Origin: a phage
Direction: 5' to 3' (one strand)
DNA length: 64,000 nt
Assembly (NCBI GenBank): GCA_033648345.1
Contig: GCA_033648345.1_4121.1
Shown in pieces: positions 19-60,288 of this stretch (positions within the stretch are counted from its first letter, which is position 1; each line of letters opens with the position of its first letter). The notes beneath the pieces are model-generated. The model was not told where the DNA came from, did not search any database, and worked only from the letters and a program-made list of their open reading frames with translations. Made by a program: the position numbers and the translations under genes.

Positions 19-240
19 GTGGCTTGTGTAAATATGAGGACTAAACATATGTTGATTTACCAATGTGATAACATTCGTGTTATGCAGCATCCCTACTTAC
101 AAATCTTTGATGTGCAGCAGTATATGGAAGGTGATGACCCAAGAACCTATGGTCGTAAGTATGATTACTTCACTGTAAAGCAGTGTCATAACATCAAAGA
201 AGTACGACAATTAGTTCAAGAACTTCAAAATAAAGGTTGA
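19..240 (+). CDS. hypothetical protein (73 aa)
   Basis: Intact ORF; its stop codon lies inside the terminator/promoter hairpin at 235-266. Confidence 0.5.
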   Translation: MACVNMRTKHMLIYQCDNIRVMQHPYLQIFDVQQYMEGDDPRTYGRKYDYFTVKQCHNIKEVRQLVQELQNKG

Positions 241-266
241 CTTCGGTCAACCTTTTTTGTTATAAT
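235..266 (+). promoter_or_regulatory. terminator-hairpin/promoter composite (PeSL-like)
   Basis: GGTTGAC-TTCG-GTCAACC hairpin + T-tract; TTGACT in stem serves as -35, TATAAT at 261-266. Confidence 0.6.
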
Positions 267-295
267 TATTTCATCAACTACTGGGGATTTTAATT

Positions 296-736
296 ATGTA
301 CGTATATCGTTTTGAACTTAAATTCAGTTATATTGAACCTAACTTAGATCCAGCAAAAACAGTAGGGCCGTTCGCACGGTACTCTTCACGATACAGTACT
401 AAAAATGGATTTGACCGTTTGTGCATGACCACGCCTTCGCAATTCCAACCAGAACCAACTGAAGATGGAATCTATTCAATCAAACGTGGCTGGGCATTTG
501 GCTGTCAGAGTTTGAATGATTTGTTTAAGTTCTTTACTATGGACTTGGGTAAATTACATCGTGCAGGGTTTGCTGTATCAGTATATGAAGTTCCTGATAA
601 TCATGTTGACATTGGTCGTAGTCAGGTTCAGTACTATTGTGGTAGTGCCAATCTGGTTCGTATTATGTCAGTGAGAGAAGCAAAGGATGAGTACCGCCAA
701 AGTAAAAGAGTAATACATGAGGCTGTATATGGATAA
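296..736 (+). CDS. hypothetical protein (146 aa)
   Basis: ORF immediately downstream of composite promoter; GGGGA SD-like upstream. Confidence 0.6.
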   Translation: MYVYRFELKFSYIEPNLDPAKTVGPFARYSSRYSTKNGFDRLCMTTPSQFQPEPTEDGIYSIKRGWAFGCQSLNDLFKFFTMDLGKLHRAGFAVSVYEVPDNHVDIGRSQVQYYCGSANLVRIMSVREAKDEYRQSKRVIHEAVYG

Positions 737-1073
737 GACTCAAATAGAATTAAAAAAATTTGTATCGTTTTATCTACCCAATGACCCACGTTGTACACAA
801 TATGATGTTGCATATTACAATGCATTGACTACACAGTTAATGAAGAAATTCAAACAGTGTTTGACTGTATTCAATGATGATGGTAGACGTAGATATAGAA
901 TCATTCCAATGAATGATGAAAACGATAACTACTTTGACTTTGATGTTGTTTTTCGAGCATACAATGATGATAGAATAAAATTAAATTATGAGCAAATAAT
1001 GCTTGACCTGAGTGTTATCTGTGTTATAATTACTCACATAGCCGAACTTGATGGTTTAAAAGAATGGTATTGA
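729..1073 (+). CDS. hypothetical protein (114 aa)
   Basis: ORF; start moved to ATG 729 with GAGG 6 nt upstream; overlaps end of previous gene. Confidence 0.5.
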   Translation: MDKTQIELKKFVSFYLPNDPRCTQYDVAYYNALTTQLMKKFKQCLTVFNDDGRRRYRIIPMNDENDNYFDFDVVFRAYNDDRIKLNYEQIMLDLSVICVIITHIAELDGLKEWY

Positions 1074-1087
1074 CTTAGAGGATAATC

Positions 1088-1354
1088 ATGAAGCTTAAAT
1101 TACAATACAATGGTTTTACTTTGCGTAACGACACTGAGTTTGTCAATCGTTCACCAGGTGCTGAGTTGTTTTTGCGAGAGATGAACATTCCTTTCGTCAT
1201 CACTACTGTTGGTGACCGTGAAGTTCTACAATACGCAGAGCATCCAGTTATTGATGTTCCGTGGTATTCTGAGCATATGTATATGGATATGGCCCGTCGC
1301 TACGACTGTAAGTTCGTAGTTGAAGGTGATAAAATTACAGTCCAATTCAAATAA
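1088..1354 (+). CDS. hypothetical protein (88 aa)
   Basis: ORF with GAGGA SD. Confidence 0.6.
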   Translation: MKLKLQYNGFTLRNDTEFVNRSPGAELFLREMNIPFVITTVGDREVLQYAEHPVIDVPWYSEHMYMDMARRYDCKFVVEGDKITVQFK

Positions 1355-1365
1355 GGTAACTTAAA

Positions 1366-1659
1366 ATGATCAGTACTTCAGTAAATGCAAGCATCGTGGC
1401 AGACGTAGAAATGGTTAAAGAATGTACAGACGAAACCCTTCGCAACATGTACATCAACGATTTGATTTCAGAGTACGGAAGTCGTGGTGTTCATGAGTTT
1501 GTTCGCCTGAGCGGTGAATTGATGAAGAATCGCATTCGTATGAAGCTTAATGTGCATCCAAAAGCATGGGCGTTTACAATGAAGTACGCTGAAGATATTG
1601 TTGAGTTGCGTCGCAATGATGTGTATAATCGTTTACACAATGGTACATTAAAGGACTAA
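1366..1659 (+). CDS. hypothetical protein (97 aa)
   Basis: ORF with AAGGT SD; followed by hairpin terminator. Confidence 0.6.
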   Translation: MISTSVNASIVADVEMVKECTDETLRNMYINDLISEYGSRGVHEFVRLSGELMKNRIRMKLNVHPKAWAFTMKYAEDIVELRRNDVYNRLHNGTLKD

Positions 1660-1664
1660 ATTAT

Positions 1665-1692
1665 AGGAATCCGTAAAAGGATTCCTGTTCTT
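1665..1692 (+). terminator. putative rho-independent terminator
   Basis: AGGAATCC-GTAAA-AGGATTCCT hairpin followed by U-rich tract. Confidence 0.45.
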
Positions 1693-1709
1693 GTTTATAA
1701 GGTAATAAA

Positions 1710-1934
1710 ATGAAATATCTAGTACTAGTACTGCTATTCTTGAGTACTGTTGTATGTGCTAAACCAAAGTATCATGTAGTGTGTGTCAACGAGATGGAAG
1801 GATATACTGAAACATATAAGAACCATATTGTTGAAGTTGTAGCCCAAGGTTCCTATGGGACCATCATCTTCCTTAAGAACAATGTGATTGTTCAGTACAA
1901 AAAAGATTCAAATTGTAAAGTGACTAAAAAATGA
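1710..1934 (+). CDS. small secreted protein (74 aa), signal peptide
   Basis: N-terminus MKYLVLVLLFLSTVVCA is signal-peptide-like; AAGGT SD. Confidence 0.6.
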   Translation: MKYLVLVLLFLSTVVCAKPKYHVVCVNEMEGYTETYKNHIVEVVAQGSYGTIIFLKNNVIVQYKKDSNCKVTKK

Positions 1935-2004
1935 TCTAGATCAATTTTTCAGATATTCTCTGTAAATAATAGCAGTACAGAACATTATTTTACGGAGGTG
2001 TAAT

Positions 2005-2241
2005 ATGGAAACTATAATCATCATATGTGCGTTGTTTGCATTTTTGGTAATGTGGTCACCAACATTCATTGCATATAAAATGAAAAATAAAAATGCAGAA
2101 GCAATTATGTACGTAAACTTATGTTGCATACTAACTTATGGAATACTTTTATTCTTTACTGAATTTACATTAATCCCAGTAGTAGTTTGTTCATCAATGT
2201 TTATTTGGTTGTTTCTGCTTTATGAATCTATTAAAAAATAA
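2005..2241 (+). CDS. small membrane protein (78 aa)
   Basis: Two hydrophobic segments; GGAGG SD. Confidence 0.6.
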   Translation: METIIIICALFAFLVMWSPTFIAYKMKNKNAEAIMYVNLCCILTYGILLFFTEFTLIPVVVCSSMFIWLFLLYESIKK

Positions 2242-2249
2242 AAGATATA

Positions 2250-2276
2250 GGGTTGGTATTATACCAACCCTTTTAC
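2250..2276 (+). terminator. putative rho-independent terminator
   Basis: GGGTTGGTAT/ATACCAACCC hairpin followed by TTTTAC. Confidence 0.55.
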
Positions 2277-2295
2277 TTTATGTGGGGTTTAATTA

Positions 2296-2868
2296 ATGAA
2301 TAGAAAAGGTAAGTTTAAAGTATCAAAGAAGAACAAAAGTTCTAGATTTAGACCTATAACTTTAACTTTTAAGGCTAAAGAAGAATTAACTGCACTTAGT
2401 AAAAAGATAATTTCATCTAAGATTAAAGTATCATACGTAAATTCGGTAAAATTTCAAAAGGTTAAACCACAAGACAAACTCATTTCACTTATATTTAAAC
2501 GTAATGATTTTGAGATATTAGTAGATGATTATAGAGCCTATAATGCTGGATTCATTCATGTCACTTGTAATACCGAACTAACTGAGTTGGAACATTTGAC
2601 ATGTATCATAAGTGTAGATAACGGTGTGGTGAAGTACAATTTTTTACATTTTACCAATATCAATAATGGAATGGGTGTACAATCCAGACCTATAGTACCT
2701 ACATGTGATGTGACTAATTTAGCAAAGCTCAATGAAGAAGAATATTTTCAAGAAAGCATTGTAACTGAGCATTTAGATGCTATAATAGCAACTTACAAAG
2801 AATGCATATGGGTTTTGAATGCGATAAAGCCCAAATTGTGTTTAATGAATGTCGTTCGTGATTTATAA
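2296..2868 (+). CDS. hypothetical protein (190 aa)
   Basis: ORF; no recognisable motif. Confidence 0.6.
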   Translation: MNRKGKFKVSKKNKSSRFRPITLTFKAKEELTALSKKIISSKIKVSYVNSVKFQKVKPQDKLISLIFKRNDFEILVDDYRAYNAGFIHVTCNTELTELEHLTCIISVDNGVVKYNFLHFTNINNGMGVQSRPIVPTCDVTNLAKLNEEEYFQESIVTEHLDAIIATYKECIWVLNAIKPKLCLMNVVRDL

Positions 2869-2881
2869 CTGGAGATGTAGT

Positions 2882-3325
2882 ATGGGTTGGATTAACGTTA
2901 ATAGCATTGAACTAAATGAGCAAGACATATTTGCCTTTGTTAATTTGGTAGAGAACATTGCTATTAAAGGTCGTCTGTTTAGTTCATCGGACGGTAAAAA
3001 ATGGATCTCTCTTATGAACGACAATGGCGAGATTTATGACGTTATGCAACTACCTCATTGGGCTTATAAGAATACATCTGATGATGTGATGGCTGCTGTT
3101 ATGCGTGAGTTTGAAAAGCTACCTGGTGGTGATATTAAGAACATCGTATTCAATGCAGAACGCATGAACTACACACCGGAGCAGCTTCAACAGTTGGCAA
3201 TTGCTGCCTATCAAGCTGCCATTAAGAAACCTGAATGTGTGATATTAAAGTACACACCGGACTTGAAGTTAACACTAGAAGATATGGATTCCTTTATCTT
3301 CAGTTCAGAACTTAAACAGTACTGA
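2882..3325 (+). CDS. hypothetical protein (147 aa)
   Basis: ORF; start set to ATG 2882 with GGAG SD just after previous stop. Confidence 0.55.
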   Translation: MGWINVNSIELNEQDIFAFVNLVENIAIKGRLFSSSDGKKWISLMNDNGEIYDVMQLPHWAYKNTSDDVMAAVMREFEKLPGGDIKNIVFNAERMNYTPEQLQQLAIAAYQAAIKKPECVILKYTPDLKLTLEDMDSFIFSSELKQY

Positions 3326-3436
3326 TTTGACTTTGGGACAACCATTTCATACGTGATATAATCTTAAGTGTCTGTAGAAATAAACAGCACATGAAGTATA
3401 AATATTAAAGTAATTTATCTCTTTAAGGAGTATGAA

Positions 3437-3820
3437 ATGGTTGATAAATGGAATAAGAAAGAACCATCGCATGATGTGGATATTTCTGGAATTGATAATG
3501 CACATAAGCATAAGTATCTTGATTCACTAGGTCTACTAAAGCCTGACCAAAGTCTTGCACATGAACGCCCATCCCGCGAAAAAGCTTTCAGTCTAGAATC
3601 TCTAGGTCATGAATTGAATCGTGTGTTTGAAGATCATCCAATTTATGTACGTGATATCATTGAGAAACTTAAAGTAACTCCTAAAGAGCACTTCAAGGCA
3701 ACAGTTCACGCAGCATTCCGTGCACTACATGAAGCACTAAAGAAAACTCATAACCTTCGTAAGATTCATGATGATATCGTGAACTCCATTGAAGGCGAAA
3801 AACATAAGTTTAAAAAATAA
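3437..3820 (+). CDS. hypothetical protein (127 aa)
   Basis: ORF with AAGGAG SD. Confidence 0.65.
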   Translation: MVDKWNKKEPSHDVDISGIDNAHKHKYLDSLGLLKPDQSLAHERPSREKAFSLESLGHELNRVFEDHPIYVRDIIEKLKVTPKEHFKATVHAAFRALHEALKKTHNLRKIHDDIVNSIEGEKHKFKK

Positions 3821-3826
3821 TTAAAA

Positions 3827-3860
3827 GGGGTTGACTTCGGTCAGCCCTTTGTCGTATAAT
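3827..3860 (+). promoter_or_regulatory. terminator-hairpin/promoter composite (PeSL-like)
   Basis: GGGGTTGAC-TTCG-GTCAGCCC hairpin, T-rich, TATAAT 3855-3860. Confidence 0.6.
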
Positions 3861-3906
3861 ATTTTCATTGCTAGAACATAAACCAACTGAGGTAATCATA
3901 TCAAAC

Positions 3907-4164
3907 ATGGCAGAAACATTATCACTATATGCATTAGTACTGTTATTTGTCGGATTTCTTCCCGCACTTATTACAGCCATTCGTGTTGTTAAACATGAAG
4001 CTGCGTTGATTGTATGTAGTATTGGGGCGAACATTCTATTGTATTTCTTTTTAACAAATACTATTGTACTGTTTGCTTTCTTTATCATGATTCTGTGGGT
4101 ACTTGTAATTCTCGGATTCTTCATTTGGTCATTGGTTGATCCTAAGAAAAAACAGGAGAAGTGA
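3907..4164 (+). CDS. small membrane protein (85 aa)
   Basis: Hydrophobic ORF; track start 3868 (TTG) lies at the predicted transcript start so ATG 3907 chosen. Confidence 0.5.
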   Translation: MAETLSLYALVLLFVGFLPALITAIRVVKHEAALIVCSIGANILLYFFLTNTIVLFAFFIMILWVLVILGFFIWSLVDPKKKQEK

Positions 4165-4165
4165 A

Positions 4166-4462
4166 ATGAAATTAATTATTGTAATGATGATGTGTTTGGT
4201 TTTCCCAGTACTGGCTACTCCTAATCTGGACTGCACACTGATGCGTTCAGATGGTGACACACTTGAAATCAACACATATGAACTCTTTGGTCCAAGTGTA
4301 GTGGAGAATGAAACCACCTACAATTTCAAAGCTATTGACTTTGAAGGTAATGTTCCAGTACTAACTACAATGACTATTGACAAAACTACTTTACTCGGAC
4401 GAATCACCACACAACGCGGAGAAAGTAAAACATTCACAGCGAAAGCTGACTGTAACTACTAA
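4166..4462 (+). CDS. secreted protein (98 aa), signal peptide
   Basis: AGGAGA SD then ATG 4166; N-terminus MKLIIVMMMCLVFPVLA. Confidence 0.6.
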   Translation: MKLIIVMMMCLVFPVLATPNLDCTLMRSDGDTLEINTYELFGPSVVENETTYNFKAIDFEGNVPVLTTMTIDKTTLLGRITTQRGESKTFTAKADCNY

Positions 4463-4483
4463 TGGTATAGTACAGTGAAAATA

Positions 4484-4514
4484 GGGTTGACTTCGGTCAA
4501 CCTTTATATATAAT
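4484..4514 (+). promoter_or_regulatory. terminator-hairpin/promoter composite (PeSL-like)
   Basis: GGGTTGAC-TTCG-GTCAACC hairpin; TATAAT 4509-4514. Confidence 0.6.
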
Positions 4515-4527
4515 GGAAGAAATAAAC

Positions 4528-5055
4528 ATGGAACGTTGGAAATTAATTCCTGATTATGACTATTCAATTTCTGATCATGGAAGAGTAAGAAACGAACAAA
4601 CTGGATATATAAGTTGTGGATTTAAAAATAAAGATGGGTATGTGAAGGTCGATTTGTATCGCAATTCTGTGAAAAATAGAAAGGCGATTCATCGACTAGT
4701 AGCTGAAGCATTTTTACCACCACCCACACAGAAACAGTTACAGTGGGCGAGTAGAACAAAGAAAAAAGTTGTTCACATAAACCATAAAGATTGTAATAGA
4801 AGTAACAATCACTATTTGAATTTGGAATGGAGCACAGCATCTGAAAACGTACTATATTCTTATTCACATGGTAACGCAACAACTAATCGTGGTGCTGCTG
4901 TGTTGACATGGGAAATTGTAAGAGAAATAAGAAAAGATTATAATGATAATTATAATGATGTGATAGAATATGCACGAGAAAATTGTAATAAATACCGTGT
5001 ATGTAAAAAAACAATACGTCGTATTTTATACAATCAAACATGGATAGAGGATTAA
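4528..5055 (+). CDS. HNH homing endonuclease (NUMOD4-like N-terminus + HNH)
   Basis: WKLIPDYDYSISDHGRVRN motif, then AIHRLVAEAF...HINHKDCNRSNNHYLNLEW HNH motif; ATG 4513 is inside the -10 box so 4528 used. Confidence 0.8.
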   Translation: MERWKLIPDYDYSISDHGRVRNEQTGYISCGFKNKDGYVKVDLYRNSVKNRKAIHRLVAEAFLPPPTQKQLQWASRTKKKVVHINHKDCNRSNNHYLNLEWSTASENVLYSYSHGNATTNRGAAVLTWEIVREIRKDYNDNYNDVIEYARENCNKYRVCKKTIRRILYNQTWIED

Positions 5056-5059
5056 AAAT

Positions 5060-6553
5060 ATGCCACAAGATAATGGGGATATGAAACATCGTAATGGTGG
5101 ACTAGTACAACACTCGGATAAATGGGCCGACCGAAATCGTCGCAAAAATAGTTATCAAGCAGGACAAGGTTCACGTGGTTCCAGAAACCAAGGAACGGGA
5201 CTTGCTGGTAAGGCAAACGCAGAAGCAGGTGAAGTTAAGAGTACTGAGAACATGACTGAGCTAGAAAAGCTACGTTATGTTAACTCATTAGGTCTTCTTA
5301 ACGCAACACAGAAACAACGCCTTGCTGATATGGAACGTGCTGAGAAAGAACAAGCAGTTCCTAAAGAAGAACCAAAACCAGAAGCTCCTAAAGCAGCTAA
5401 CCCTGTTAAAGAGTTATCTGATAACTTAGGTAAGATCTTTGCTAACAAACCACAGTTGATTCAGGGTATTGTCAAAGCACTACAGGCAGTTCCTAAAGAA
5501 GAACTCAAAGGTAAAGCACAAGCTGTACTTGATGCAATGAAAGGTAATAAGAGCACTGAACCCACTGAAGTATTCAGTACTATCATGCGTGCACTTGAAG
5601 GTACACACAAAGAAGATTCCAAAGAACCTGAACAGGGTGAAGCAAGTCTTGATGGTATTCTTAAAACTTTTGATAGTATTGGTAAAGCAGACCGTGCTAA
5701 TGCCCAGCAAGTCAAGAATGTACTGGCTAAACTTGAAAACCGTTTAGAAGGTAAAGATGATAAGGTTAAGCTCGTATCAGATGCAGTTAACAGTGCACTT
5801 AAATCTTATGTACAAGGTGAGAAAAGTCGCTTCGTAACAGCTATGGATGCTGCATTCAACACTATGAAAAAGTATGAAGCAGAACATGGTGAGAAAGTGA
5901 CACCTGATGGATATCTACTACGTAAAGATGAAGAAGGTGCAGTTGAACAGAAAGATGTTGAGCCTGAGCAAGAAGATCTACCTGATACCGTTGATATGGA
6001 TGGATACATTCATCGTCCTGAGATGGAAGAGTTTGGGTCAGATAAAGAAGGTTTTGAACATGCAATGGCAGTATATAAAGCATTAGTTAAAAATCCAGAT
6101 TATGCTAACCGTTTTGTTGACGAGTTTGATAGTGCATGGAATAACTACAAAGAGAAAGGTTATGATTTCCCTGCTGAAGCTGCATTCTTTGAACTTGGTA
6201 AACTATTAGCTAAACATGGAATTGACGTTGGTTCATCTGATTCCGAAGGTATGGAAGAAGAACATCTTGAAATGACCGATAAATCAATTCATGAACTTCA
6301 AAAGCTAATGATGTGGATATCCGAGATTGGTAAAAAAGCAGGTGCTGATAGTAAAAGTATCAACAAAAACATTAGTTGGATTAAAGATAATGTTGGTAAC
6401 AATGCTCGTAAACTACAAAAGGCGTGGGCTGATTTAGTAAATGGTGCAGATGATGTTGACATTGAATCACCAGAAGCATATGAGTATGCACTAACTACGC
6501 TCGATAACTCATTCAAAGAGTACGACCGTGGTGTTGGAAAAGATAAAAAATAA
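5060..6553 (+). CDS. acidic Lys/Glu/Ala-rich protein (497 aa), probable coiled coil
   Basis: Long ORF with GAGGA SD; low-complexity charged composition. Confidence 0.7.
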   Translation: MPQDNGDMKHRNGGLVQHSDKWADRNRRKNSYQAGQGSRGSRNQGTGLAGKANAEAGEVKSTENMTELEKLRYVNSLGLLNATQKQRLADMERAEKEQAVPKEEPKPEAPKAANPVKELSDNLGKIFANKPQLIQGIVKALQAVPKEELKGKAQAVLDAMKGNKSTEPTEVFSTIMRALEGTHKEDSKEPEQGEASLDGILKTFDSIGKADRANAQQVKNVLAKLENRLEGKDDKVKLVSDAVNSALKSYVQGEKSRFVTAMDAAFNTMKKYEAEHGEKVTPDGYLLRKDEEGAVEQKDVEPEQEDLPDTVDMDGYIHRPEMEEFGSDKEGFEHAMAVYKALVKNPDYANRFVDEFDSAWNNYKEKGYDFPAEAAFFELGKLLAKHGIDVGSSDSEGMEEEHLEMTDKSIHELQKLMMWISEIGKKAGADSKSINKNISWIKDNVGNNARKLQKAWADLVNGADDVDIESPEAYEYALTTLDNSFKEYDRGVGKDKK

Positions 6554-6563
6554 ACATTTAAAA

Positions 6564-6600
6564 GGTTGACTTCGGTCAACCTTTTTTTGTAAATATTGTA
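6564..6600 (+). promoter_or_regulatory. terminator-hairpin/promoter composite (PeSL-like)
   Basis: GGTTGAC-TTCG-GTCAACC hairpin + TTTTTTT, weak -10 TAAATA. Confidence 0.55.
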
Positions 6601-6624
6601 GAGGGTTTTATAAGAGGTAATGCA

Positions 6625-6876
6625 ATGTTTAAATATGTTTTATTTTCACTTGTATTGTTTACTGATATAGTTTATAGTACTGAATACCAGTGCTCCATTG
6701 CTAGACAGGAGTTTAGAAACGGTGAGTTCTATACCAAGTCTTACACTAGAGGATTGGTACATGACAATAATAAAACTATAGGGTTCAATGCATTTGATAA
6801 CAAAGATCGATATACGTCTGGAATACTATCTGAACGTAAGTCGGATATACTAGGTATCGAGCGTGAATTCCGGTGA
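6625..6876 (+). CDS. hypothetical protein (83 aa) with signal-peptide-like N-terminus
   Basis: ORF; MFKYVLFSLVLFTDIVYS; may be the 5' part of a frameshifted longer gene. Confidence 0.5.
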   Translation: MFKYVLFSLVLFTDIVYSTEYQCSIARQEFRNGEFYTKSYTRGLVHDNNKTIGFNAFDNKDRYTSGILSERKSDILGIEREFR

Positions 6877-6886
6877 CACGGTTGCA

Positions 6887-7237
6887 ATGTGTAATGATAT
6901 TGAGAGTACTAAGAAAGTATATACTAATGGTGAAAATACTTTTAGATTCCACAATCTTACTACCAATGAAAGTTTATACTTCTACAACTGTAAAGAGTTC
7001 ATTAAACCTGTGGATAACTCATGTGATATGCCGGAGCCAAAAGCTGCTGTATGTGAGGAACCACAATCCAAAGCTGACAAAGATTCAAAAGATAAGAAAG
7101 ACAAAGCTGACAAATCGGATAAAAAAGAAAACAAAAAGAAAGCTAAAGATGATAAAGATAAAAAGTCCCCTAAGCCAAATCCATTTGAAAAGCCAAAGAA
7201 TGAAAAGCCAAAACCAGACATGACATGTAAAATATAA
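6887..7237 (+). CDS. Lys/Asp-rich low-complexity protein (116 aa)
   Basis: ORF in a different frame overlapping the previous stop; KDKKDKADKSDKKENKKK tail. Confidence 0.4.
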   Translation: MCNDIESTKKVYTNGENTFRFHNLTTNESLYFYNCKEFIKPVDNSCDMPEPKAAVCEEPQSKADKDSKDKKDKADKSDKKENKKKAKDDKDKKSPKPNPFEKPKNEKPKPDMTCKI

Positions 7238-7244
7238 AAGAAAA

Positions 7245-7277
7245 GGGTTGACTTCGGTCGGCCCTTTTTGCTATAAT
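7245..7277 (+). promoter_or_regulatory. terminator-hairpin/promoter composite (PeSL-like)
   Basis: GGGTTGAC-TTCG-GTCGGCCC hairpin + T-tract; TATAAT 7272-7277. Confidence 0.6.
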
Positions 7278-7303
7278 CATTTCATCAACTACTGGAGGTA
7301 AAC

Positions 7304-7717
7304 ATGTTAAAAGTTATTTTCCGTTCTATCAGTTCATTACTTCTTATGATTAGTTCAGTTTGTTATGCAAATGAAGTATCTGATTTATTTGAGAAGAATT
7401 ACCCAACCGCACAAGAGATGGGTGTTTTAAAATGCAAGCTAACTTCGTACAACATCATCGGCAGTAAACTTGTACTGGAACATGAACGTAGTACACCAAT
7501 CCCTCTAGTAGAAGAAGGCAGTACCTTTAGCTTCAAGTACGGGGTGAATGTAACATCTGGTGTAATGAACAATGTTGATGCAGAGACTGGTTCAACATGG
7601 AGTACTAGCGGTAAAGATGTGTTTCATCGTATGCGTGAAAATGGTAAACTGAAGTACGTATATGAAAGTTCATTCATGAAACGTGTATTCATTATAAAAA
7701 ATTGTGTACCAGCATAA
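7304..7717 (+). CDS. secreted protein (137 aa), signal peptide
   Basis: GGAGG SD; N-terminal hydrophobic leader ending ...SSVCYA. Confidence 0.65.
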   Translation: MLKVIFRSISSLLLMISSVCYANEVSDLFEKNYPTAQEMGVLKCKLTSYNIIGSKLVLEHERSTPIPLVEEGSTFSFKYGVNVTSGVMNNVDAETGSTWSTSGKDVFHRMRENGKLKYVYESSFMKRVFIIKNCVPA

Positions 7718-7728
7718 GGAACAACATC

Positions 7729-8004
7729 ATGCGTTCATTTGAAAACTTAATCGGTAAACTTCGCTTACAAGAAATTGAAGATGATGTGAAGGAATTATCT
7801 GAAACTAAGAGTTACATTCATTTAGATGAACTGTTTATTAAGTACGGTGAGATTGGTTTTAAGTCATTATTTGTTTTTGTCATGAAGGTGCATAGTTTAA
7901 AGTACTTTGATTTGAGTTCAAAAGACGGACAACCAAATCTGTATTACATGTATTATCTTAAGAACATAGACGAAGCTAATACATTATTCTTAGAATATAT
8001 GTAG
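7729..8004 (+). CDS. hypothetical protein (91 aa)
   Basis: AAGGAA SD then ATG 7729. Confidence 0.6.
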   Translation: MRSFENLIGKLRLQEIEDDVKELSETKSYIHLDELFIKYGEIGFKSLFVFVMKVHSLKYFDLSSKDGQPNLYYMYYLKNIDEANTLFLEYM

Positions 8005-8014
8005 GGGTAAAAAA

Positions 8015-8353
8015 ATGGAACAACATTTTGAATTAATTAATAAGGTATCATTTTATGTAGTATCGTTAATTTGGGTGTATTACATGTTTTGTTACATTAT
8101 TGCATTCTTCCGATACACAACCTTGTATCAACGCATATACTACGATGCACCCATTTCATTTATGATGTTCTGTGCATGTACGTGGGGGATAATTGAAGCA
8201 CTGGTATGTGGATATAGTACTGACGAATTAAATCTCGTATCGGTGTTGACATTACTAACAATTGCTACTATGATAGCTACTGTTCCGATATTTTTGCTCT
8301 TTAAACTGCTTCATCGCATCGATGAGTGGCGTAATAAAATCCCTGAAAAGTAA
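8015..8353 (+). CDS. small membrane protein, family M member 1 (112 aa)
   Basis: 3-4 hydrophobic helices, basic C-terminal tail (…WRNKIPEK); paralogous to 8363, 8706 and 13394-15833. Confidence 0.65.
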   Translation: MEQHFELINKVSFYVVSLIWVYYMFCYIIAFFRYTTLYQRIYYDAPISFMMFCACTWGIIEALVCGYSTDELNLVSVLTLLTIATMIATVPIFLLFKLLHRIDEWRNKIPEK

Positions 8354-8362
8354 GGATTGATA

Positions 8363-8704
8363 ATGATTTTTTACACTAATGCGTTTGCTTATGCCGTTGC
8401 ATCAATCTACATTGTGTACTTCTTATTTGGTGGAGTACTGTACTTCTTTAAGTACAAAACATTGTTTAACCGAATGTATCCAAATCATCCAATTGTAGTA
8501 GTACTTTTGATTATTTCTGTTGCTCACATCATTGTAGAAACAATAATGGGTATCAGTGCAGTACATTACAGTCTAGGTACTATTGTAATTATTACTATGA
8601 TCATCGCATACATTTTAGTAATGGGTTTTGGTTTATTTGGAAATGTAGCAATGAAATTGTATAATCGAATCAAAACATTACGTGATAATCTACCGGAGCG
8701 TTGA
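8363..8704 (+). CDS. small membrane protein, family M member 2 (113 aa)
   Basis: AAGGA SD then ATG 8363; C-terminus …LRDNLPER. Confidence 0.65.
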   Translation: MIFYTNAFAYAVASIYIVYFLFGGVLYFFKYKTLFNRMYPNHPIVVVLLIISVAHIIVETIMGISAVHYSLGTIVIITMIIAYILVMGFGLFGNVAMKLYNRIKTLRDNLPER

Positions 8705-8705
8705 G

Positions 8706-9050
8706 ATGTATAATTTAAATTTAATATCATATATCATAACAACACTGTTTACTTTCTATGCCTTTGTTGGTATACTCCTACTGTACTTTAAATTTTATAA
8801 ACTTTTTGATCGTTTTTATCCGTCATTAGAACATGAATTCTTATTAGTGATGTACATATGTCTAACGTTTATGTCTACATTTTTCACTGCATCTGATGGT
8901 ATCATTGGTATTAAAGCTGAAGAACCAAATGGGAGTACGCTTGTTGCCTTTATTCTGGTAGGATTTTTCAGTACTTATATTACCTTTATTTCAGGATGTA
9001 CCGTGATTGATTATCTTGTGAAATTACGAGATAAAATGCCAAATCGATAG
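8706..9050 (+). CDS. small membrane protein, family M member 3 (114 aa)
   Basis: Start overlaps previous stop (TGAGATG); C-terminus …LRDKMPNR. Confidence 0.6.
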   Translation: MYNLNLISYIITTLFTFYAFVGILLLYFKFYKLFDRFYPSLEHEFLLVMYICLTFMSTFFTASDGIIGIKAEEPNGSTLVAFILVGFFSTYITFISGCTVIDYLVKLRDKMPNR

Positions 9051-9059
9051 GGGATTGCT

Positions 9060-9317
9060 ATGTTTGCATTGCGTAATAAAAATACAAAAGAGATTCTGTG
9101 TATCTCAACAGTATGGGATTGTGCAGGAAGTGAAATGATTCTCGAAGAAGGTTCAGGTGATTGTGTTTATGTTGTTCAGGATCGTCGCGAACTGGAATCA
9201 TTACTTGACGAATTTAATGCTGGTGGAAATCCTAAAAGTACTCAATTCCCTGAGATCAGGAATCCAGCACCACCAGGCTCTTATGAAATTCTACAACTGT
9301 GGGAGATGGATAAGTAA
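9060..9317 (+). CDS. hypothetical protein (85 aa)
   Basis: ORF; contains a Chi octamer at 9219-9226. Confidence 0.55.
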   Translation: MFALRNKNTKEILCISTVWDCAGSEMILEEGSGDCVYVVQDRRELESLLDEFNAGGNPKSTQFPEIRNPAPPGSYEILQLWEMDK

Positions 9318-9697
9318 TGCGTCAAATGCACAAAGTAACCGAGCTAAACAAGCGTCTGATTAAACAATCAATGTTTGAGGATAAAGAGTCTTACTATAAC
9401 TTCAAACGTGCTGTAGAGGCTGCTATCCACATTCAGAAGCTTAAAGATAGTGGATGTATTATTCTCGAAAATGGTTCTGACGTTGTTACTGATGACTTCA
9501 GTGTAGCGTTTGATGTTTCACCTGATGGTTCGCTATCAATGCCACGCTTAGGGACTGGTGACATGACTGTGTGGGTAGGTTTCACTATGGGGAATGTACC
9601 AGGCACGGTGTATGTAGATGATGCTGAGTTGAAAGAAAGCTTCAAAAACTTATCGCATCTTGAACCACAATACGCACATGAAATGAATTTATTTTGA
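9317..9697 (+). CDS. hypothetical protein (126 aa)
   Basis: ORF; start overlaps previous stop. Confidence 0.55.
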   Translation: MRQMHKVTELNKRLIKQSMFEDKESYYNFKRAVEAAIHIQKLKDSGCIILENGSDVVTDDFSVAFDVSPDGSLSMPRLGTGDMTVWVGFTMGNVPGTVYVDDAELKESFKNLSHLEPQYAHEMNLF

Positions 9698-9698
9698 G

Positions 9699-9758
9699 TT
9701 GACAAACTCATTCAGTACTGTATAATGTTTATCAAGGGGATGAACTTCTCATCCCCAC
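9699..9758 (+). promoter_or_regulatory. sigma70-type promoter with 5' stem-loop
   Basis: TTGACA 9699-9704, 16-nt spacer with AGTACTG, TATAAT 9721-9726, then GGGGATGA…TCATCCCC hairpin before SD. Confidence 0.6.
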
Positions 9759-9773
9759 AATCGAGGAATTGTC

Positions 9774-10328
9774 ATGATTACTTTTAAGAAAACTGCTAAC
9801 CACATCCATGAGATCTACATTAACGGTCACAAAGCTGGCCTTCTTCGTTTACTCGCCCATCATCCGAATATTACCGTATCTGATAATGAACCTAAAGATT
9901 GGCGTGTATTTTTCTTTGGAAAGTACAGTGATTTTCAAGTATCAAACCTGAAGAACATTCGTTCAGTATGCACGTTAACTGAAATTAAAGAAAAGTTAAC
10001 CAAAGCATTGAAAACTAATCCAGATAGTGTTCTTCCACCTGATAACTTTGTAGAGAAAGGATATGCCTTAGCTCATTTCAAAGATGGTACTATTCAATCT
10101 ATCAGTACTGAATATGAATATCAATGGACTGAGTACTTCACTTATGGATCGCGTAATACATTGATGGCTTCACGTAGTAAATTGGAAGAAGTACTGACTC
10201 GTATGAATGAACGCGAGCGTCAATTTTATGACAAACCAGAAATGTGGAGTTCAACTTACATTGACCGTATTGACTATGTTATTATGACTCCAATCTTTGA
10301 CACTGCTTACTATGATTCTTTGAAATAA
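9774..10328 (+). CDS. hypothetical protein (184 aa)
   Basis: ORF with GAGGA SD. Confidence 0.65.
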   Translation: MITFKKTANHIHEIYINGHKAGLLRLLAHHPNITVSDNEPKDWRVFFFGKYSDFQVSNLKNIRSVCTLTEIKEKLTKALKTNPDSVLPPDNFVEKGYALAHFKDGTIQSISTEYEYQWTEYFTYGSRNTLMASRSKLEEVLTRMNERERQFYDKPEMWSSTYIDRIDYVIMTPIFDTAYYDSLK

Positions 10329-10339
10329 GGATAACTTAT

Positions 10340-10516
10340 ATGAAACTACGTACTCGTAATCGACTGATGGATGCACTGTACCATGAACAGCTTTCACTGA
10401 ATGAAGTGAAGCGTCAGTTAATGTACACATATCTGTTACCCGCTCGCATTGCAAAACAACGTGCTAAAGAATTGCTGAAAGAAGCAATCGAGTACTGGGA
10501 ATCTGATTCGTACTAA
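10340..10516 (+). CDS. hypothetical small protein (58 aa)
   Basis: ORF below track threshold; AAGGA SD 8 nt upstream. Confidence 0.45.
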   Translation: MKLRTRNRLMDALYHEQLSLNEVKRQLMYTYLLPARIAKQRAKELLKEAIEYWESDSY

Positions 10517-10544
10517 TTGTCACGTTAATTAAGTGAGGCGATAA

Positions 10545-10796
10545 ATGAAAATTTTATTAGTTCTAATACTACTAATTGTTTTACCATTTACGTTAGTATC
10601 CCCTGAACTTGCATGGAATGTGTTTGTGTACTTACTATGTACTATTGTAGTAAATGGTATCTTGTTCTTAGTTCTATTCATAAATGGAATAGGACACGGT
10701 GGAGGATGGACCAGTACTGCTGATATTGTACATAAAACCACTATGTCTTTATTTGTAGTGTGGAATTTATTCTGGACTTGGTTTGTGTTCTTCTAA
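10545..10796 (+). CDS. small membrane protein (83 aa)
   Basis: Hydrophobic ORF with GAGG SD. Confidence 0.55.
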   Translation: MKILLVLILLIVLPFTLVSPELAWNVFVYLLCTIVVNGILFLVLFINGIGHGGGWTSTADIVHKTTMSLFVVWNLFWTWFVFF

Positions 10797-10805
10797 TTAA
10801 AAAAT

Positions 10806-11177: not shown

Positions 11178-11178
11178 T

Positions 11179-11601: not shown

Positions 11602-11607
11602 AACAAA

Positions 11608-11640: not shown

Positions 11641-11668
11641 CATTTCATCGAAACGAGAGGATGAATAC

Positions 11669-12145: not shown

Positions 12146-12151
12146 AGGAAA

Positions 12152-50510: not shown

Positions 50511-50520
50511 ATGAAAAAAG

Positions 50521-50554
50521 TGGTTGACTTCGGTCAGCCATTTTGCTATTATAT
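50521..50554 (+). promoter_or_regulatory. terminator-hairpin/promoter composite (PeSL-like)
   Basis: GGTTGAC-TTCG-GTCAGCC hairpin + TTTTGCTATTATAT. Confidence 0.6.
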
Positions 50555-50555: not shown

Positions 50556-50606
50556 TTCATTGAGAGATAGCTCACTAGCCCACCGGGTGCATAAGTGTAT
50601 CTATTA
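50556..50606 (+). ncRNA. candidate small RNA/leader (element E) downstream of PeSL
   Basis: TTCATTGAGAGATAGCTCACTAGCCCACCGGGTGCATAAGTGTATCTATTATAT. Confidence 0.3.
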
Positions 50607-50724
50607 TATAAGTATTGAGTACTGAAAACTATTTTTAAAAAGTACTTGCAAACTATCTCAATAAGCGTATAATGTTTTACATCGAAAGGGGAAACGGTTT
50701 CCCCTGGTAATAAGGAAACAAATC

Positions 50725-54508: not shown

Positions 54509-54522
54509 AAATAATTGAAAAA

Positions 54523-54558
54523 GGGATTGACTCCGGTCAGTCCCTTTGCTATTATATA
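54523..54558 (+). promoter_or_regulatory. terminator-hairpin/promoter composite (PeSL-like)
   Basis: GGGATTGAC-TCCG-GTCAGTCCC hairpin + TTTGCTATTATATA. Confidence 0.6.
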
Positions 54559-54603
54559 CGCATAGAAACAAATTAGCCCACCGGGTGCATAAATGTATCT
54601 ATT
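54559..54603 (+). ncRNA. candidate small RNA/leader (element E) downstream of PeSL
   Basis: …AATTAGCCCACCGGGTGCATAAATGTATCTATTG followed by a Chi octamer at 54608. Confidence 0.3.
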
Positions 54604-54690
54604 GTTTGCTGGTGGCTAGTACTATCAAGTACTGAAAACTATTTTTAAAAAGTACTTGCAAAGTATCACGATAAGCGTATAATGTTTTAC

Positions 54691-54770
54691 ATCAGGACGG
54701 GGAACGAAACAAGTAACCCCGTTAAGTAGTCCAGGAGTAAGACATACGAAAAACTCCCCTGATAAAATAG
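54691..54770 (+). ncRNA. conserved non-coding leader between tandem promoters (element L)
   Basis: Near-identical to 43731-43810. Confidence 0.35.
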
Positions 54771-57785: not shown

Positions 57786-57800
57786 AAAAAGATTAAAAAA

Positions 57801-57836
57801 GGGATTGACTCCGGTCAGTCCCTTTGCTATTATATA
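57801..57836 (+). promoter_or_regulatory. terminator-hairpin/promoter composite (PeSL-like)
   Basis: GGGATTGAC-TCCG-GTCAGTCCC hairpin + TTTGCTATTATATA. Confidence 0.6.
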
Positions 57837-57892
57837 TTCATTGAGAGATAACTCACTGACCCATAGGGTGCGGAAGTGTATCTATTATATAA
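57837..57892 (+). ncRNA. candidate small RNA/leader (element E) downstream of PeSL
   Basis: TTCATTGAGAGATAACTCACTGACCCATAGGGTGCGGAAGTGTATCTATTATAT. Confidence 0.3.
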
Positions 57893-58008: not shown

Positions 58009-58416
58009 ATGACTACTACTAATCAAGCTCGGTCCATCGCCAACGATAAAAATCATGCTGCAATGGTCGCTGGTTACATTGAAGCTATGCAATTCAGTAC
58101 TGTACACAATGAGAACGGCGAATACCTGGAAGATTATGAATTATCAGAGCAAGCCCATCAAGCGGCAGTGATTGCATGTTCACGTTTCCTTGCTGTACAT
58201 GGTGAAGATATGGAAACAGTACAAAAACACCATAATCCTGATTATACTTATAGTCATGCAGGTCATGATCTCTTTCTTACTCGCGAAGGTCACGGCACTG
58301 GTTTTTGGGATCGTGATATCGGTCACTATGATGATATATTCACTAAGTACTGCGAAGAAATCAACGTTTGCGATCCCTATGTAGGCGATGATAATCTAAT
58401 CTATATGGGCGAATAA
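58009..58416 (+). CDS. hypothetical protein (135 aa)
   Basis: Promoter + GGGGGAAATGGTTCTCCC hairpin + AAGGAA SD; track start 57976 is in the hairpin. Confidence 0.6.
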   Translation: MTTTNQARSIANDKNHAAMVAGYIEAMQFSTVHNENGEYLEDYELSEQAHQAAVIACSRFLAVHGEDMETVQKHHNPDYTYSHAGHDLFLTREGHGTGFWDRDIGHYDDIFTKYCEEINVCDPYVGDDNLIYMGE

Positions 58417-58504
58417 AAGTATTTGACAAAGTATATCAGTACTGTATAATAGTTTACATCAAGGGGAGAATAGTTCTCCCCCACCAATAAAAGGAAACAA
58501 AATT

Positions 58505-58777
58505 ATGTCCAGCTACTCCGCTACTATGATCATTAAAGATATGAACGGTAATCCTACTTCTGCTGGTGGATCATTTGGAAACATTAATTTAGATGGTCGG
58601 TTATCCATGCAATCAGCCATCGATGCAGCGAAAGAAGTTTTTAAGAATGAATGTACTGTAAGTAAGCTGGATTATATGGGATTCGCTATCGAAAAAACTA
58701 ATCGTTTTGTGAACTACAAAAATCCACTGATGATCGATACTAACCTGAAAGCAAACGAAGTGGGGTACTTATTATGA
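58505..58777 (+). CDS. hypothetical protein (90 aa)
   Basis: Promoter TTGACA…TATAAT + hairpin + AAGGAA SD. Confidence 0.6.
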   Translation: MSSYSATMIIKDMNGNPTSAGGSFGNINLDGRLSMQSAIDAAKEVFKNECTVSKLDYMGFAIEKTNRFVNYKNPLMIDTNLKANEVGYLL

Positions 58778-58965
58778 CAGTTGAAGAAGTTAAAAAAGTA
58801 CTGGCAGTACTACGCTATCATAATCATTGCAAGGTGAAGAATGATCCTGATTATCTCGATTCATCCCTGGAAGAGGATACACTACAAGCAATAAGCCATA
58901 TGCAAAAAATGCTTAAGCGTATGACCGAAAAGAATAGGCCGGACTATATCGGAAATAAAATTTAA
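58774..58965 (+). CDS. hypothetical protein (63 aa)
   Basis: ATGA overlap with previous stop. Confidence 0.55.
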   Translation: MTVEEVKKVLAVLRYHNHCKVKNDPDYLDSSLEEDTLQAISHMQKMLKRMTEKNRPDYIGNKI

Positions 58966-59052
58966 AAAGTACTTGCATTGTAGTTAGATTAACGTATAAT
59001 GTTTTATATCGAGAGGGGGAAATGGTTTCCCCTCAAGTCCAGGAGATACACC

Positions 59053-59316
59053 ATGAACACTATCGAAATCACTATCAATGCACACGTATACGACAACGTA
59101 GTACTGCAAACTACTATGACCGCTAATGATACCAGTACTTTGCGGAATACTGTTATTAGTGCCGTATGTGCTGCAATCGGTGATGTATCCCTGGAAAATG
59201 CAGAACATATCAACAACGGTTTCACTATGTGCAAGCGTGATAACGCAAAACATATCATCGTGGAAGGTTACGGCGGTGTAGAATTTAATGTTTATATGAA
59301 AAAAGTACTTGCATAA
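59053..59316 (+). CDS. hypothetical protein (87 aa)
   Basis: Promoter + hairpin + AGGAGA SD then ATG 59053. Confidence 0.6.
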   Translation: MNTIEITINAHVYDNVVLQTTMTANDTSTLRNTVISAVCAAIGDVSLENAEHINNGFTMCKRDNAKHIIVEGYGGVEFNVYMKKVLA

Positions 59317-59383
59317 TAACTAAAACAAAGTATAATGTTTTGCATAGGGGGAGATATCCTCCCCCACTAAAAGGAGTAATAAA

Positions 59384-59608
59384 ATGGCTAACTTTGATGA
59401 ACTGATGCGGGAAGTAGCTAACCTGGCAGAAGAGAAGAAATCATTCGATTCTATCTATAACACCGCTCACCGTGATTCAGTACTGGCATGTAACCAGGAT
59501 CAAAAAGATGAACTAATCGCCACCTATCATGAAGCATGGAAGTACTACCGACAATGGGAGAAAGAAGAAAGTGAGTCTACCATTGACGGCCTCAATAATC
59601 TAATCTAA
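59384..59608 (+). CDS. hypothetical protein (74 aa)
   Basis: Promoter + GGGGGAGATATCCTCCCCC hairpin + AAGGAG SD. Confidence 0.6.
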   Translation: MANFDELMREVANLAEEKKSFDSIYNTAHRDSVLACNQDQKDELIATYHEAWKYYRQWEKEESESTIDGLNNLI

Positions 59609-59684
59609 AAGTTTTATTTCAGTACTATTGACATAGCTTGATAGTACTGATGTAATAACTTTACTAACTACAAGGGGAAACATA

Positions 59685-59942
59685 ATGGAACAGTTCACAC
59701 AATATCGGGTAAATCCACAAGCTATGGCCTACGTAGAAGACCATAAAACGTTACCAGTACTGCAACCAGTTAAAGGCCGTATCTATCGTGGCCTTGCCTG
59801 GGATACGGCCCAGGATGGATATAAAACCGTCGCCGTGGGGATGTATTGCGGGAATGGTGAATGGTTTGATCCTAGCAATCCGATTGCACTTGACAGTACT
59901 GAAAAAATGAAATGGGCCGACTACATCGAAGATATTTCATAA
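59685..59942 (+). CDS. hypothetical protein (85 aa)
   Basis: Promoter TTGACA…; AAGGGGA SD. Confidence 0.6.
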   Translation: MEQFTQYRVNPQAMAYVEDHKTLPVLQPVKGRIYRGLAWDTAQDGYKTVAVGMYCGNGEWFDPSNPIALDSTEKMKWADYIEDIS

Positions 59943-60032
59943 AAACTATTTGACAGTACTAACCAGTAATGTATAATGTTTTACATAGAGCGGGGGAATA
60001 GTTCTCCCGCCAATAGTTTGGAGTTAAACATT

Positions 60033-60233
60033 ATGTCTATCGCTATCGCCCTGGTTGAAGTACTGAAAGAAGCTAAAGCCAACCAGATCGACGTAAAGAT
60101 CCAGGAACTACAAAACGGCTTAATCGGCTGTACTTGTACCGCTGGTGGAGCGGCAGACTATCGAGAACACGAATCACTCGAATCACTGGTTCGGTATCTT
60201 ACCATGATCGTTGATGATTGGAGAATCATCTAA
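60033..60233 (+). CDS. hypothetical protein (66 aa)
   Basis: Promoter + GCGGGGGAATAGTTCTCCCGC hairpin + GGAG SD; contains Chi at 60141. Confidence 0.55.
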   Translation: MSIAIALVEVLKEAKANQIDVKIQELQNGLIGCTCTAGGAADYREHESLESLVRYLTMIVDDWRII

Positions 60234-60251
60234 CAAAAAAAGAATAAAAAA

Positions 60252-60288
60252 GGGATTGACTCCGGTCAGTCCCTTTGCTATTATATAC
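60252..60288 (+). promoter_or_regulatory. terminator-hairpin/promoter composite (PeSL-like)
   Basis: GGGATTGAC-TCCG-GTCAGTCCC hairpin + TTTGCTATTATATA. Confidence 0.6.

Follow-up and report, generated by a model that had tools for sequence, protein, structure and literature searches.

Promoter early stem-loops (PeSLs), in which an early promoter is combined with a stem-loop, have been described in T4-like phages. Promoter and terminator activity of the RB49 PeSL was shown by lacZ fusions, and mini-circles were shown experimentally for the PeSLs of RB49 and phi1 (PMC2839356), whose sequences differ from those described here, which are known from sequence. The PeSLs of phage nt-1 have a published stem consensus of A3-4G3-loop-C3T3-4 (PMC4122927). 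For CBB, a RaK2-like phage, RpoD-like early promoters with UP-like elements were predicted, concentrated in the early regions and the terminal repeat (PMC5259590). Here we describe twelve hairpin/promoter composites in a 64,000-nucleotide stretch of phage DNA, contig GCA_033648345.1_4121.1 of GenBank assembly GCA_033648345.1 (the window). By megablast, the window is assigned to the genus Asteriusvirus (121Q/PBECO4/G17-like jumbo coliphages, kin of Klebsiella phage RaK2), with CMSTMSU, vB_Ec-M-J, WPEC5 and Turkey3 as top matches at 97-98% identity. The elements are probably PeSL-type bifunctional cassettes, which would combine termination, initiation, insulation and recombination in 121Q-like Asteriusvirus.

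Twelve copies of a hairpin/promoter element

An earlier reading of the DNA from its letters alone (the sequence-only reading) had listed twelve such sites. All are present on the plus strand, 2-4 nt from the starts it gave. When the window was searched for TTGACTTCGGTCA with up to two mismatches, 14 matches were found against 1.44 expected, and 11 of them are sites on that list. The 23-mer GGGTTGACTTCGGTCAGCCCTTT, with up to three mismatches, gave 8 matches against 0.00 expected. Every copy is intergenic and co-directional with the genes; eight lie in a variable early block and four in a direct terminal repeat of about 21 kb. Ten are intact composites, one (6566) is terminator-only and one (4487) is disrupted. 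Copies are referred to by number or by the position of TTGAC (237, 3831, 4487, 6566, 11611, 12155, 12495, 50524, 54527, 57805, 60256).

Composite 1, 228-266, plus strand: AAAGGTTGAC-TTCG-GTCAACCTTT, -35 at 237-242, 18-bp spacer, TGt-TATAAT at 261-266; -14.1 kcal/mol, z -5.1
Composite 2, 3825-3860, plus strand: AAGGGGTTGAC-TTCG-GTCAGCCCTTT, -35 at 3831-3836, TATAAT at 3855-3860; -16.9 kcal/mol
Composite 3, 4483-4514, plus strand: hairpin intact, promoter half altered
Composite 4 (6566), 6560-6590, plus strand: hairpin and T7 tract without an acceptable -10 (TGTAAATATT); -15.3 kcal/mol
Composite 5, 7240-7277, plus strand: GGGTTGAC-TTCG-GTCGGCCC, two G·U pairs, TGc-TATAAT at 7272-7277
Composite 6, 11602-11640, plus strand: directly 5' of denV
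Composite 7, 12147-12184, plus strand: directly 3' of denV
Composite 8, 12487-12524, plus strand: loop ACTA, perfect TTGACA-18-TATAAT with TGc; -18.7 kcal/mol
Composite 9, 50517-50552, plus strand: AAAGTGGTTGAC-TTCG-GTCAGCCATTTT, 17-bp spacer, TGc-TATTAT; terminal repeat
Composite 10, 54520-54555, plus strand: AAAGGGATTGAC-TCCG-GTCAGTCCCTTT, TGc-TATTAT; terminal repeat; -19.5 kcal/mol
Composite 11, 57798-57833, plus strand: sequence type as composite 10; terminal repeat
Composite 12, 60249-60284, plus strand: sequence type as composite 10; terminal repeat

The TGA stop of the upstream gene sits within the TTGAC of composite 1. Composite 2 has no TGn and just three T past the stem. The spacer of composite 3 is 16 bp, and its TATAAT overlaps the ATG of an inserted HNH gene; at this site the relatives have TATACT at 17 bp. 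Composite 4, which a structural scan for composites did not pick up, appears to be effectively terminator-only. Composite 5 folds at -18.0 kcal/mol in the sense and -10.1 kcal/mol in the antisense orientation, and composite 8 lies 5' of a gene for a 257-aa putative ATPase.

The consensus that had been proposed holds for the hairpin, found in 12 of 12 copies, and not for an invariable TATAAT: six copies have TATAAT, five have TATTAT, and 6566 is without an acceptable -10. The proposed TTCG loop is present in eight copies; three have TCCG (54527, 57805 and 60256), with an extra A-U pair (GGGATTGAC...GTCAGTCCC), and one has ACTA (12495). A unit length of about 35 bp was too short an estimate: when the copies are aligned, conservation passes the -10 into the leader, and the unit measures about 60-70 bp. 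Two sub-families can be distinguished. The eight copies from 237 to 12495 have a short conserved leader (CATTTCATC[A/G]A...) and then a Shine-Dalgarno sequence; in seven of these eight first-block copies the Shine-Dalgarno sequence and ATG follow within 26-46 nt of the -10, the distance at 4487 being -2 (overlap). The four terminal-repeat copies all have TGcTATTAT at 17 bp, followed by a conserved box, a second promoter and the gene, so that 142-277 nt separate them from the ATG, with the second promoter lying between.

A terminator-like hairpin, GGGTTGGTATTATACCAACCC followed by TTTT, is also found at 2249-2271. It starts like a composite, with an A-tract and GGGTTG, is without a promoter half, and may be a degenerate thirteenth copy.

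Predicted termination and initiation signals share the same DNA

That each site joins a terminator to a promoter, as the sequence-only reading held, is consistent with every sequence feature tested. From 5' to 3', an A-rich tract leads into a GC-clamped hairpin, then a T-tract and, in most copies, TGnTATAAT or TATTAT. On the terminator side, the upstream stop codon lies 0-24 nt before TTGAC in 10 of the 12 copies, those with an assignable upstream open reading frame (ORF), and the T-run past the stem is 3-7 residues long. On the promoter side, TTGACT or TTGACA is paired with TATAAT or TATTAT over a 17-18 bp spacer in 10 copies, the hexamer score is 10-12 out of 12 in 11 copies, and TGn precedes the -10 in 9 of 12. 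The 22 nt 5' of the stem are 68-91% A+T (27-68% A), an UP-like tract.

The two sets of signals interlock. The C at the end of TTGAC forms the closing pair of the C(UUCG)G loop, and TTGACT takes its final T from the first position of that loop. The 18-bp spacer is made up of 3 nt of loop, 8 nt of 3' arm and the 7 nt TTTTTGY, which ends in the TGn. Public annotations have recorded the halves: ARNOLD terminators at these hairpins in the G17 record, a terminator at the homologous terminal-repeat hairpin in that of Salmonella phage Munch, and -35/-10 signals on the homologous module in that of Yersinia phage fHe-Yen9-03. In none of these three GenBank records is there a composite treatment.

Some features weigh against a dual function at every copy. 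The U-tract is short (UUUG) at 3831 and at three of the four terminal-repeat copies (UUUUG at 50524), and copies with short U-tracts may terminate only partly. An 18-bp spacer is the optimum plus one, 6566 has no -10, and the promoter of 4487 is doubtful.

In the mechanism that we propose, RNA read through from the upstream gene would fold into a hairpin of -12 to -19.5 kcal/mol followed by U3-7, forming an intrinsic terminator whose release point would fall within the spacer of the next promoter. To host sigma-70 polymerase, this stretch would be an early promoter. In it, the A-rich tract would act as the UP-like element, TTGAC(T) in the 5' arm plus first loop base as the -35, and TGnTATAAT or TATTAT as an extended -10; the 17-18 bp spacer would consist of the other loop bases, the 3' arm and the T-tract, and a leader of 26-46 nt would hold the Shine-Dalgarno sequence. 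Since termination and initiation would both take place at each element, every early gene block would become a separate transcription unit. The elements would also double as crossover points at which cassettes are deleted, inserted or swapped while keeping their expression signals, because they are near-identical direct repeats of 45-70 bp in a lineage with RecA/UvsX-like and UvsY-like proteins. RecA-like and UvsY proteins are annotated in the relative 121Q.

Possible recombination at the elements in related phages

The sequence-only reading had linked the elements to gene shuffling. Comparison with relatives is consistent with this for the first block, where junctions fall at five of eight copies and a mosaic and a half copy are found, and not for the terminal repeat. 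Six relatives were aligned to the first block (G17, vB_Ec-M-J, CMSTMSU, 121Q, Turkey3 and JP4). Relative to the copies, alignments end at +30/+63 (3831), +18 (4487), -6 to -16 (11611), +10 to +12, within the hairpin (12155), and -6 (12495). At composite 6 (11611) the alignments of all six relatives resume 6-16 nt 5' of TTGAC, and at composite 8 (12495) those of four relatives resume exactly 6 nt 5' of it. Composite 7 (12155) is a mosaic: its left flank, the end of denV, resembles 121Q and vB_Ec-M-J, and its right flank resembles CMSTMSU. Since the two flanks match different phages, the crossover is placed within the hairpin core of about 20 nt. At the site of composite 7, 121Q, G17, vB_Ec-M-J and JP4 carry a half copy, GGGTTGACTTCGGTTAcacaaagg, fused to a different gene, and the fusion point is the boundary between loop and 3' arm.

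The genes next to the copies in this block include the following.

4513-5055, plus strand: HNH_3 + NUMOD4 endonuclease gene, inserted directly after the hairpin of composite 3
11669-12145, plus strand: denV (Pyr_excise), the sole gene with composites on both sides

Copies had been said to flank denV, the HNH endonuclease and a P-loop ATPase. Of these, denV alone has a copy on either side; the HNH and putative ATPase genes each have a 5' copy only, and the label "P-loop ATPase" corresponds to an AAA_16 match under Pfam's cutoff. The segment from denV to the copy at the putative ATPase gene is 323 bp in the window versus 2.1-2.9 kb in the relatives, with differing contents.

The elements could instead be regulatory only, their association with insertions and deletions (indels) being passive and gene turnover being driven by HNH/homing endonucleases together with illegitimate or gene-boundary recombination. 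We consider this less likely, yet the most probable of the alternatives. The variable DNA near the copies consists largely of HNH/homing endonuclease genes, which have their own mobility mechanism. The insert after 4487 is the HNH + NUMOD4 gene, specific to the window in that it was not found in any of the six relatives compared, and in relatives HNH/homing endonuclease genes lie by the copies at denV and the putative ATPase gene (EcMJ_557, EcMJ_562, JP4_0196, JP4_0203 and 121Q gene 221). The four terminal-repeat copies are kept in place in vB_Ec-M-J and 121Q, and in the terminal repeat, indel junctions fall at another type of promoter cassette instead of the hairpins. The first block, too, shows modest enrichment, about 5 of 9-10 junction breakpoints against about 26% expected under a null restricted to gene junctions, of which 8 of 31 carry a copy; this is our own count from the relatives' alignments. 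A passive association does not readily account for a crossover inside the hairpin core after denV with different phages matching on either side, for a half element fused to unrelated sequence at the loop/3'-arm boundary, or for the exact resumption of four alignments before 12495. Recombination in PeSL loops has moreover been shown directly in RB49 and phi1 (PMC2839356).

The stem is probably constrained as RNA

The sense RNA hairpins of the twelve copies have free energies of -12.1 to -19.5 kcal/mol (z -3.9 to -6.6) and are more stable than the antisense hairpins by 5.6-7.9 kcal/mol. TTGAC is invariant in the 5' arm and the 3' arm varies. Pairing was tabulated for 119 distinct composites drawn from the window, its relatives and IMG/VR. 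G lies opposite the first T of TTGAC in 103 of them, against 13 with A, 3 with T and none with C; facing the second T, 109 have A, 9 have G and 1 has C. This sample tilts slightly to purines, as a few of its loci come from scans requiring R at both positions. The G·U pairs preserve the sense RNA hairpin, break the DNA palindrome and weaken the antisense hairpin. The favoured G (bottom strand GGCTGAC) would also avoid an antisense -35. On this constant stem the loops are stable tetraloops: UUCG, UCCG and GNRA.

These patterns bear on a second alternative, in which the sites are early promoters whose palindrome works at the DNA level, as an operator bound by a regulator of phage or host origin or as a cruciform, rather than as an RNA terminator. 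An inverted repeat over the -35 does lie where operators are classically found; further early promoters of the window have CAGTACTG palindromes, and AGTACT-based hairpins surround the -35 at 51662 and 55812. The palindromes of the composites, however, are mostly imperfect in the way that RNA tolerates, with G opposite T in 103 of 119 and never C, and their loops are RNA-stabilising UUCG and GNRA tetraloops. The T-tract is always present after the hairpin, and the sense strand folds far better than the antisense strand. An operator or cruciform is therefore very improbable.

Least probable of all is that the sites are plain intrinsic terminators with an incidental likeness to promoters and no transcription start: the terminator-only annotations of G17 and Munch, the occurrence of the identical 23-mer hairpin and T-tract as an ordinary-looking terminator in 11 bacterial contigs and the missing -10 of 6566 speak for it, but it leaves unexplained a -10 match of at least 5/6 at a constant distance of 17-18 bp in 10 of 12 copies with TGn in 9 of 12, an A-rich tract, conserved leader and Shine-Dalgarno sequence that exceed a terminator's needs, an unchanging TTGAC in the 5' arm opposite a variable 3' arm, and TAnnnT at 16-19 bp in 119 of 153 distinct contexts across phages.

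Distribution in the genome

The window is laid out as follows.

1-15.8 kb, plus strand: small genes
15869-34882, minus strand: array of about 16 consecutive paralogous genes of 358-449 aa (about 380 aa)
34967-39973, plus strand: about 25 tandem ORFs of 59-81 aa, many with overlaps of a few bases, immediately ahead of the terminal repeat
about 40.3 kb to about 61.8 kb: direct terminal repeat of about 21 kb

Position 40317 of the window aligns to base 1 of vB_Ec-M-J, whose annotated repeat is 1-21525. The motif scan of the window found no composite in the minus-strand paralogue array at 15869-34882. A structural scan was also performed, for hairpins of -11 kcal/mol or below that have any TTGNNN in their 5' arm and are followed by a T-run and TAnnnT at 16-19 bp. 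In the window it returned 14 sites, namely 11 of the 12 known copies, two promoters with AGTACT palindromes and one doubtful site. In 121Q it returned seven sites at 95-113 kb and six at 132-162 kb, the latter equivalent to the terminal repeat, and none in the 50 kb of the replication and structural core (1-50 kb). Pattern scans of IMG/VR likewise place 121Q copies solely in those two early regions. The confinement in 121Q is based on 97 kb of that genome and on pattern scans of its IMG/VR copy.

The annotation of 121Q has an array equivalent to the tandem ORFs at 34967-39973, in genes 252-265 and 319-346. Interleaved or tandem short repeats TGGCTAGACGG / CGGCTAAACGG, spaced by 8 and 16 nt, occupy 41112-41240, about 0.8 kb in from the left boundary of the terminal repeat, where a region of about 1.7 kb contains only a few short ORFs. 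Rfam gave no match at the gathering threshold over the whole window, and ARAGORN found no tRNA in it.

Other regulatory signals of the window

The terminal-repeat copies are accompanied by a conserved box and by a second type of promoter.

50572-50604, plus strand: conserved box (G/A)CCC-ANN-GGGTGC...GTATCTAT, about 25 nt 3' of the predicted start of the promoter of composite 9
54570-54602, 57853-57885 and 60299-60331, plus strand: conserved box after composites 10-12
43531, 50579, 52241, 54577, 57860 and 60306 (plus strand), 45522, 43599, 41648 and 41432 (minus strand): box positions
50646-50673, plus strand: tandem second promoter TTGCAA-16-TATAAT ("P2" type), between composite 9 and the gene
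42452-42519, 50639-50706, 54649-54716 and 58416-58483: examples of the P2-type cassette

Ten strong promoters, composites 9-12 and six others, have the box about 25 nt past their predicted start. It is found in both orientations and is kept with the terminal-repeat module in Munch and fHe-Yen9-03. A structured RNA at the box was considered and rejected, RNAalifold giving only a 4-bp mini-hairpin without compensatory changes. The minus-strand box at 45522 has a terminator-like hairpin after it, at 45470-45450, and a small RNA of about 100 nt is possible there. Another idea is that the box is a nut/boxB-like antitermination site.

P2 promoters equivalent to that at 50646 follow composites 10-12. 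Between 40 and 64 kb there are at least 22 copies of AAAGTACTTGCAA-N16-GTATAATGTTTTACATC, each followed by a leader hairpin and a Shine-Dalgarno sequence. The full layout of the P2-type cassette is AAAGTACTTGCAA or TTGACA, 16 bp, GTATAATGTTTTACATC[G/A]AG, the leader hairpin GGGGAGAA..TTCTCCCC, a Shine-Dalgarno sequence and ATG. Almost all small genes in the terminal repeat are preceded by such a cassette, and it is at these cassettes that the relatives' indel junctions fall. Part of the cassette has 74-86% identity to Phapecoctavirus/Justusliebigvirus phages. Its transcript would start with ATCGAGAGGG, which resembles the T7 A1 initial transcribed sequence.

Across the whole window there are 63 copies of the palindromic octamer CAGTACTG, where about one is expected, for example at 9713, 40696, 45159, 53827 and 58437, and within ORFs at 24054, 25626 and 27599. 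It directly adjoins the -10 in many terminal-repeat promoters (CAGTACTGTATAAT), and AGTACT adjoins the -35 (AAAGTACTTGCAA). The octamer could be a regulator binding site or could be tied to DNA modification or restriction.

Occurrence in other phages

A 62-nt consensus of the element matches 179 phage records. They include Asteriusvirus and the wider RaK2 group (RaK2, K64-1, CBB, BF and Eneladusvirus), 51 Vibrio phages of the KVP40/nt-1 type, Aeromonas T4-likes, Certrevirus (CR3 and CR9) and Brochothrix phage A9. The RaK2/121Q-like jumbo phages, the Vibrio and Aeromonas Straboviridae, Certrevirus and A9, groups of large lytic phages that are otherwise unrelated or only distantly related, share a design of about 45-70 bp almost base for base: A-tract, GGG-TTGAC-UUCG-GUCAG-CCC, U-tract and TGnTATAAT.

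In Aeromonas phage 65.2, an identical 20-nt hairpin with T-tract and -10 precedes a putative UV-endonuclease gene. In A9, a Gram-positive Herelleviridae phage with at least two copies, the same hairpin, T-tract and -10 precede gp142.

Horizontal spread of the cassette itself, as a common linker moving early-gene cassettes between phage families, would explain this sharing; we think it doubtful. Transfer between families is possible but unproven, because the parts are pinned to a functional consensus, bacterial terminators match too, no gene was seen to move with its element and the leader is ambiguous. As to the bacterial matches, an exact-motif scan of 596 Gb of bacterial genomes gave 11, ordinary-looking terminators in unrelated bacteria, and identity of the hairpin alone is therefore no evidence of common descent. 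The IMG/VR scan with a 15-mer gave mostly chance singletons among the matches listed, and longer patterns were used instead. The leader starts with ATCGAAAC or ATC[A/G]A[A/C] in 42 of 128 distinct composites, including those of nt-1, Certrevirus and the window. This is suggestive of a common origin; constraints of promoter escape could be an alternative.

Transfer of whole cassettes between families was examined by blastp of the ORFs at the loci of nt-1, CR3, A9, 65.2, D480 and IMG/VR contigs against those of the window, and was rejected, as matches were weak or scattered. The one contig with many matches (L010) is a related jumbo phage. The blastp comparison of ORFs at those loci gave no evidence of a gene and its element moving together between families.

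Comparison with known systems

The kind of element is largely known already, and the phage group is new for it: PeSL-type cassettes are extended from T4-like phages to RaK2/121Q jumbo phages. The elements predict early transcription units in a phage in which more than 80% of genes are without known function. They also embody a compact design rule, in which the C of TTGAC closes C(UUCG)G and the loop, 3' arm and U-tract exactly fill the 17-18 bp spacer. A part of about 45 bp could serve as an insulator in synthetic biology, and the copies are defined sites at which to ask whether repeated regulatory cassettes drive gene turnover in jumbo phages.

C(UUCG)G hairpins were reportedly found in T4 intercistronic regions by Tuerk and colleagues in 1988, as RNA stability or termination hairpins. 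The window elements share with them the extra-stable tetraloop, the C-G closing pair and the position between phage genes; unlike the window elements, the T4 hairpins are not known to contain the -35 of the next promoter.

No composite element is described in the genome papers of fEgEco12, Sharanji, RaK2 or CBB. CBB carries the same hairpin/promoter sequence as the window; its paper (PMC5259590) lists promoters and terminators separately, with no composite or PeSL-like element.

The RB49/phi1 PeSLs (Arbiol et al. 2010, PMC2839356) likewise join an AT-rich upstream tract and an early sigma-70 promoter close to consensus to a terminator stem-loop, are repeated between ORFans and are tied to indels among close relatives. 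The RB49 stem-loop, however, consists of polyG/polyC and is in most cases located in the -35/-10 spacer or over the -10, whereas in the window elements the -35 itself is the 5' arm.

The closest likeness is to the nt-1/KVP40-type PeSLs of schizo-T4-like Vibrio phages (Comeau, Arbiol & Krisch 2014, PMC4122927). The resemblance to PeSLs that the sequence-only reading had pointed to is here more than analogy, since layout and nearly sequence are shared. The nt-1 elements have the same order of parts: an A-tract, a GGG clamp, the -35 (TTGAC/TTGCxx) in the 5' arm, a loop of 3-4 nt, a 3' arm ..CAGCCC, T4-6, a -10 (TATCAT/TATTAT), a leader ..ATC[G/A]A[A/C].., a Shine-Dalgarno sequence and ATG. Intergenic examples from nt-1 are AAAAGGGTTGACAGTAGTCAGCCCTTTTTTGTATCAT...ATCAACTCAATGGAGAG..ATG, GGGTTGCTTCGGCAGCCCTTTTTTGTTATTCT and GGGTTGCACTATGCAGCCCTTTTTAGTATTAT...ACATCGAAACGAGA, which fit the published stem consensus. 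One nt-1 copy has a UUCG loop, and both systems lie between small ORFans in variable regions. The exchange of AC/GT for CA/TG between GGGTTGAC..GTCAGCCC and GGGTTGCA..TGCAGCCC is a double compensatory change. The order of parts, shared down to the leader, and this compensatory change indicate that the window elements are, as judged from their sequence, nt-1-type PeSLs in a different phage lineage. They differ from those of nt-1 in three respects. Their carrier is an Asteriusvirus, a RaK2/121Q-like jumbo phage with a terminal repeat of about 21 kb, and not a member of the Straboviridae. Their hairpin core is far more uniform, TTGAC-UUCG-GUCAG in most copies, and four of them are part of a larger conserved module that also includes a box further 3' and another promoter.

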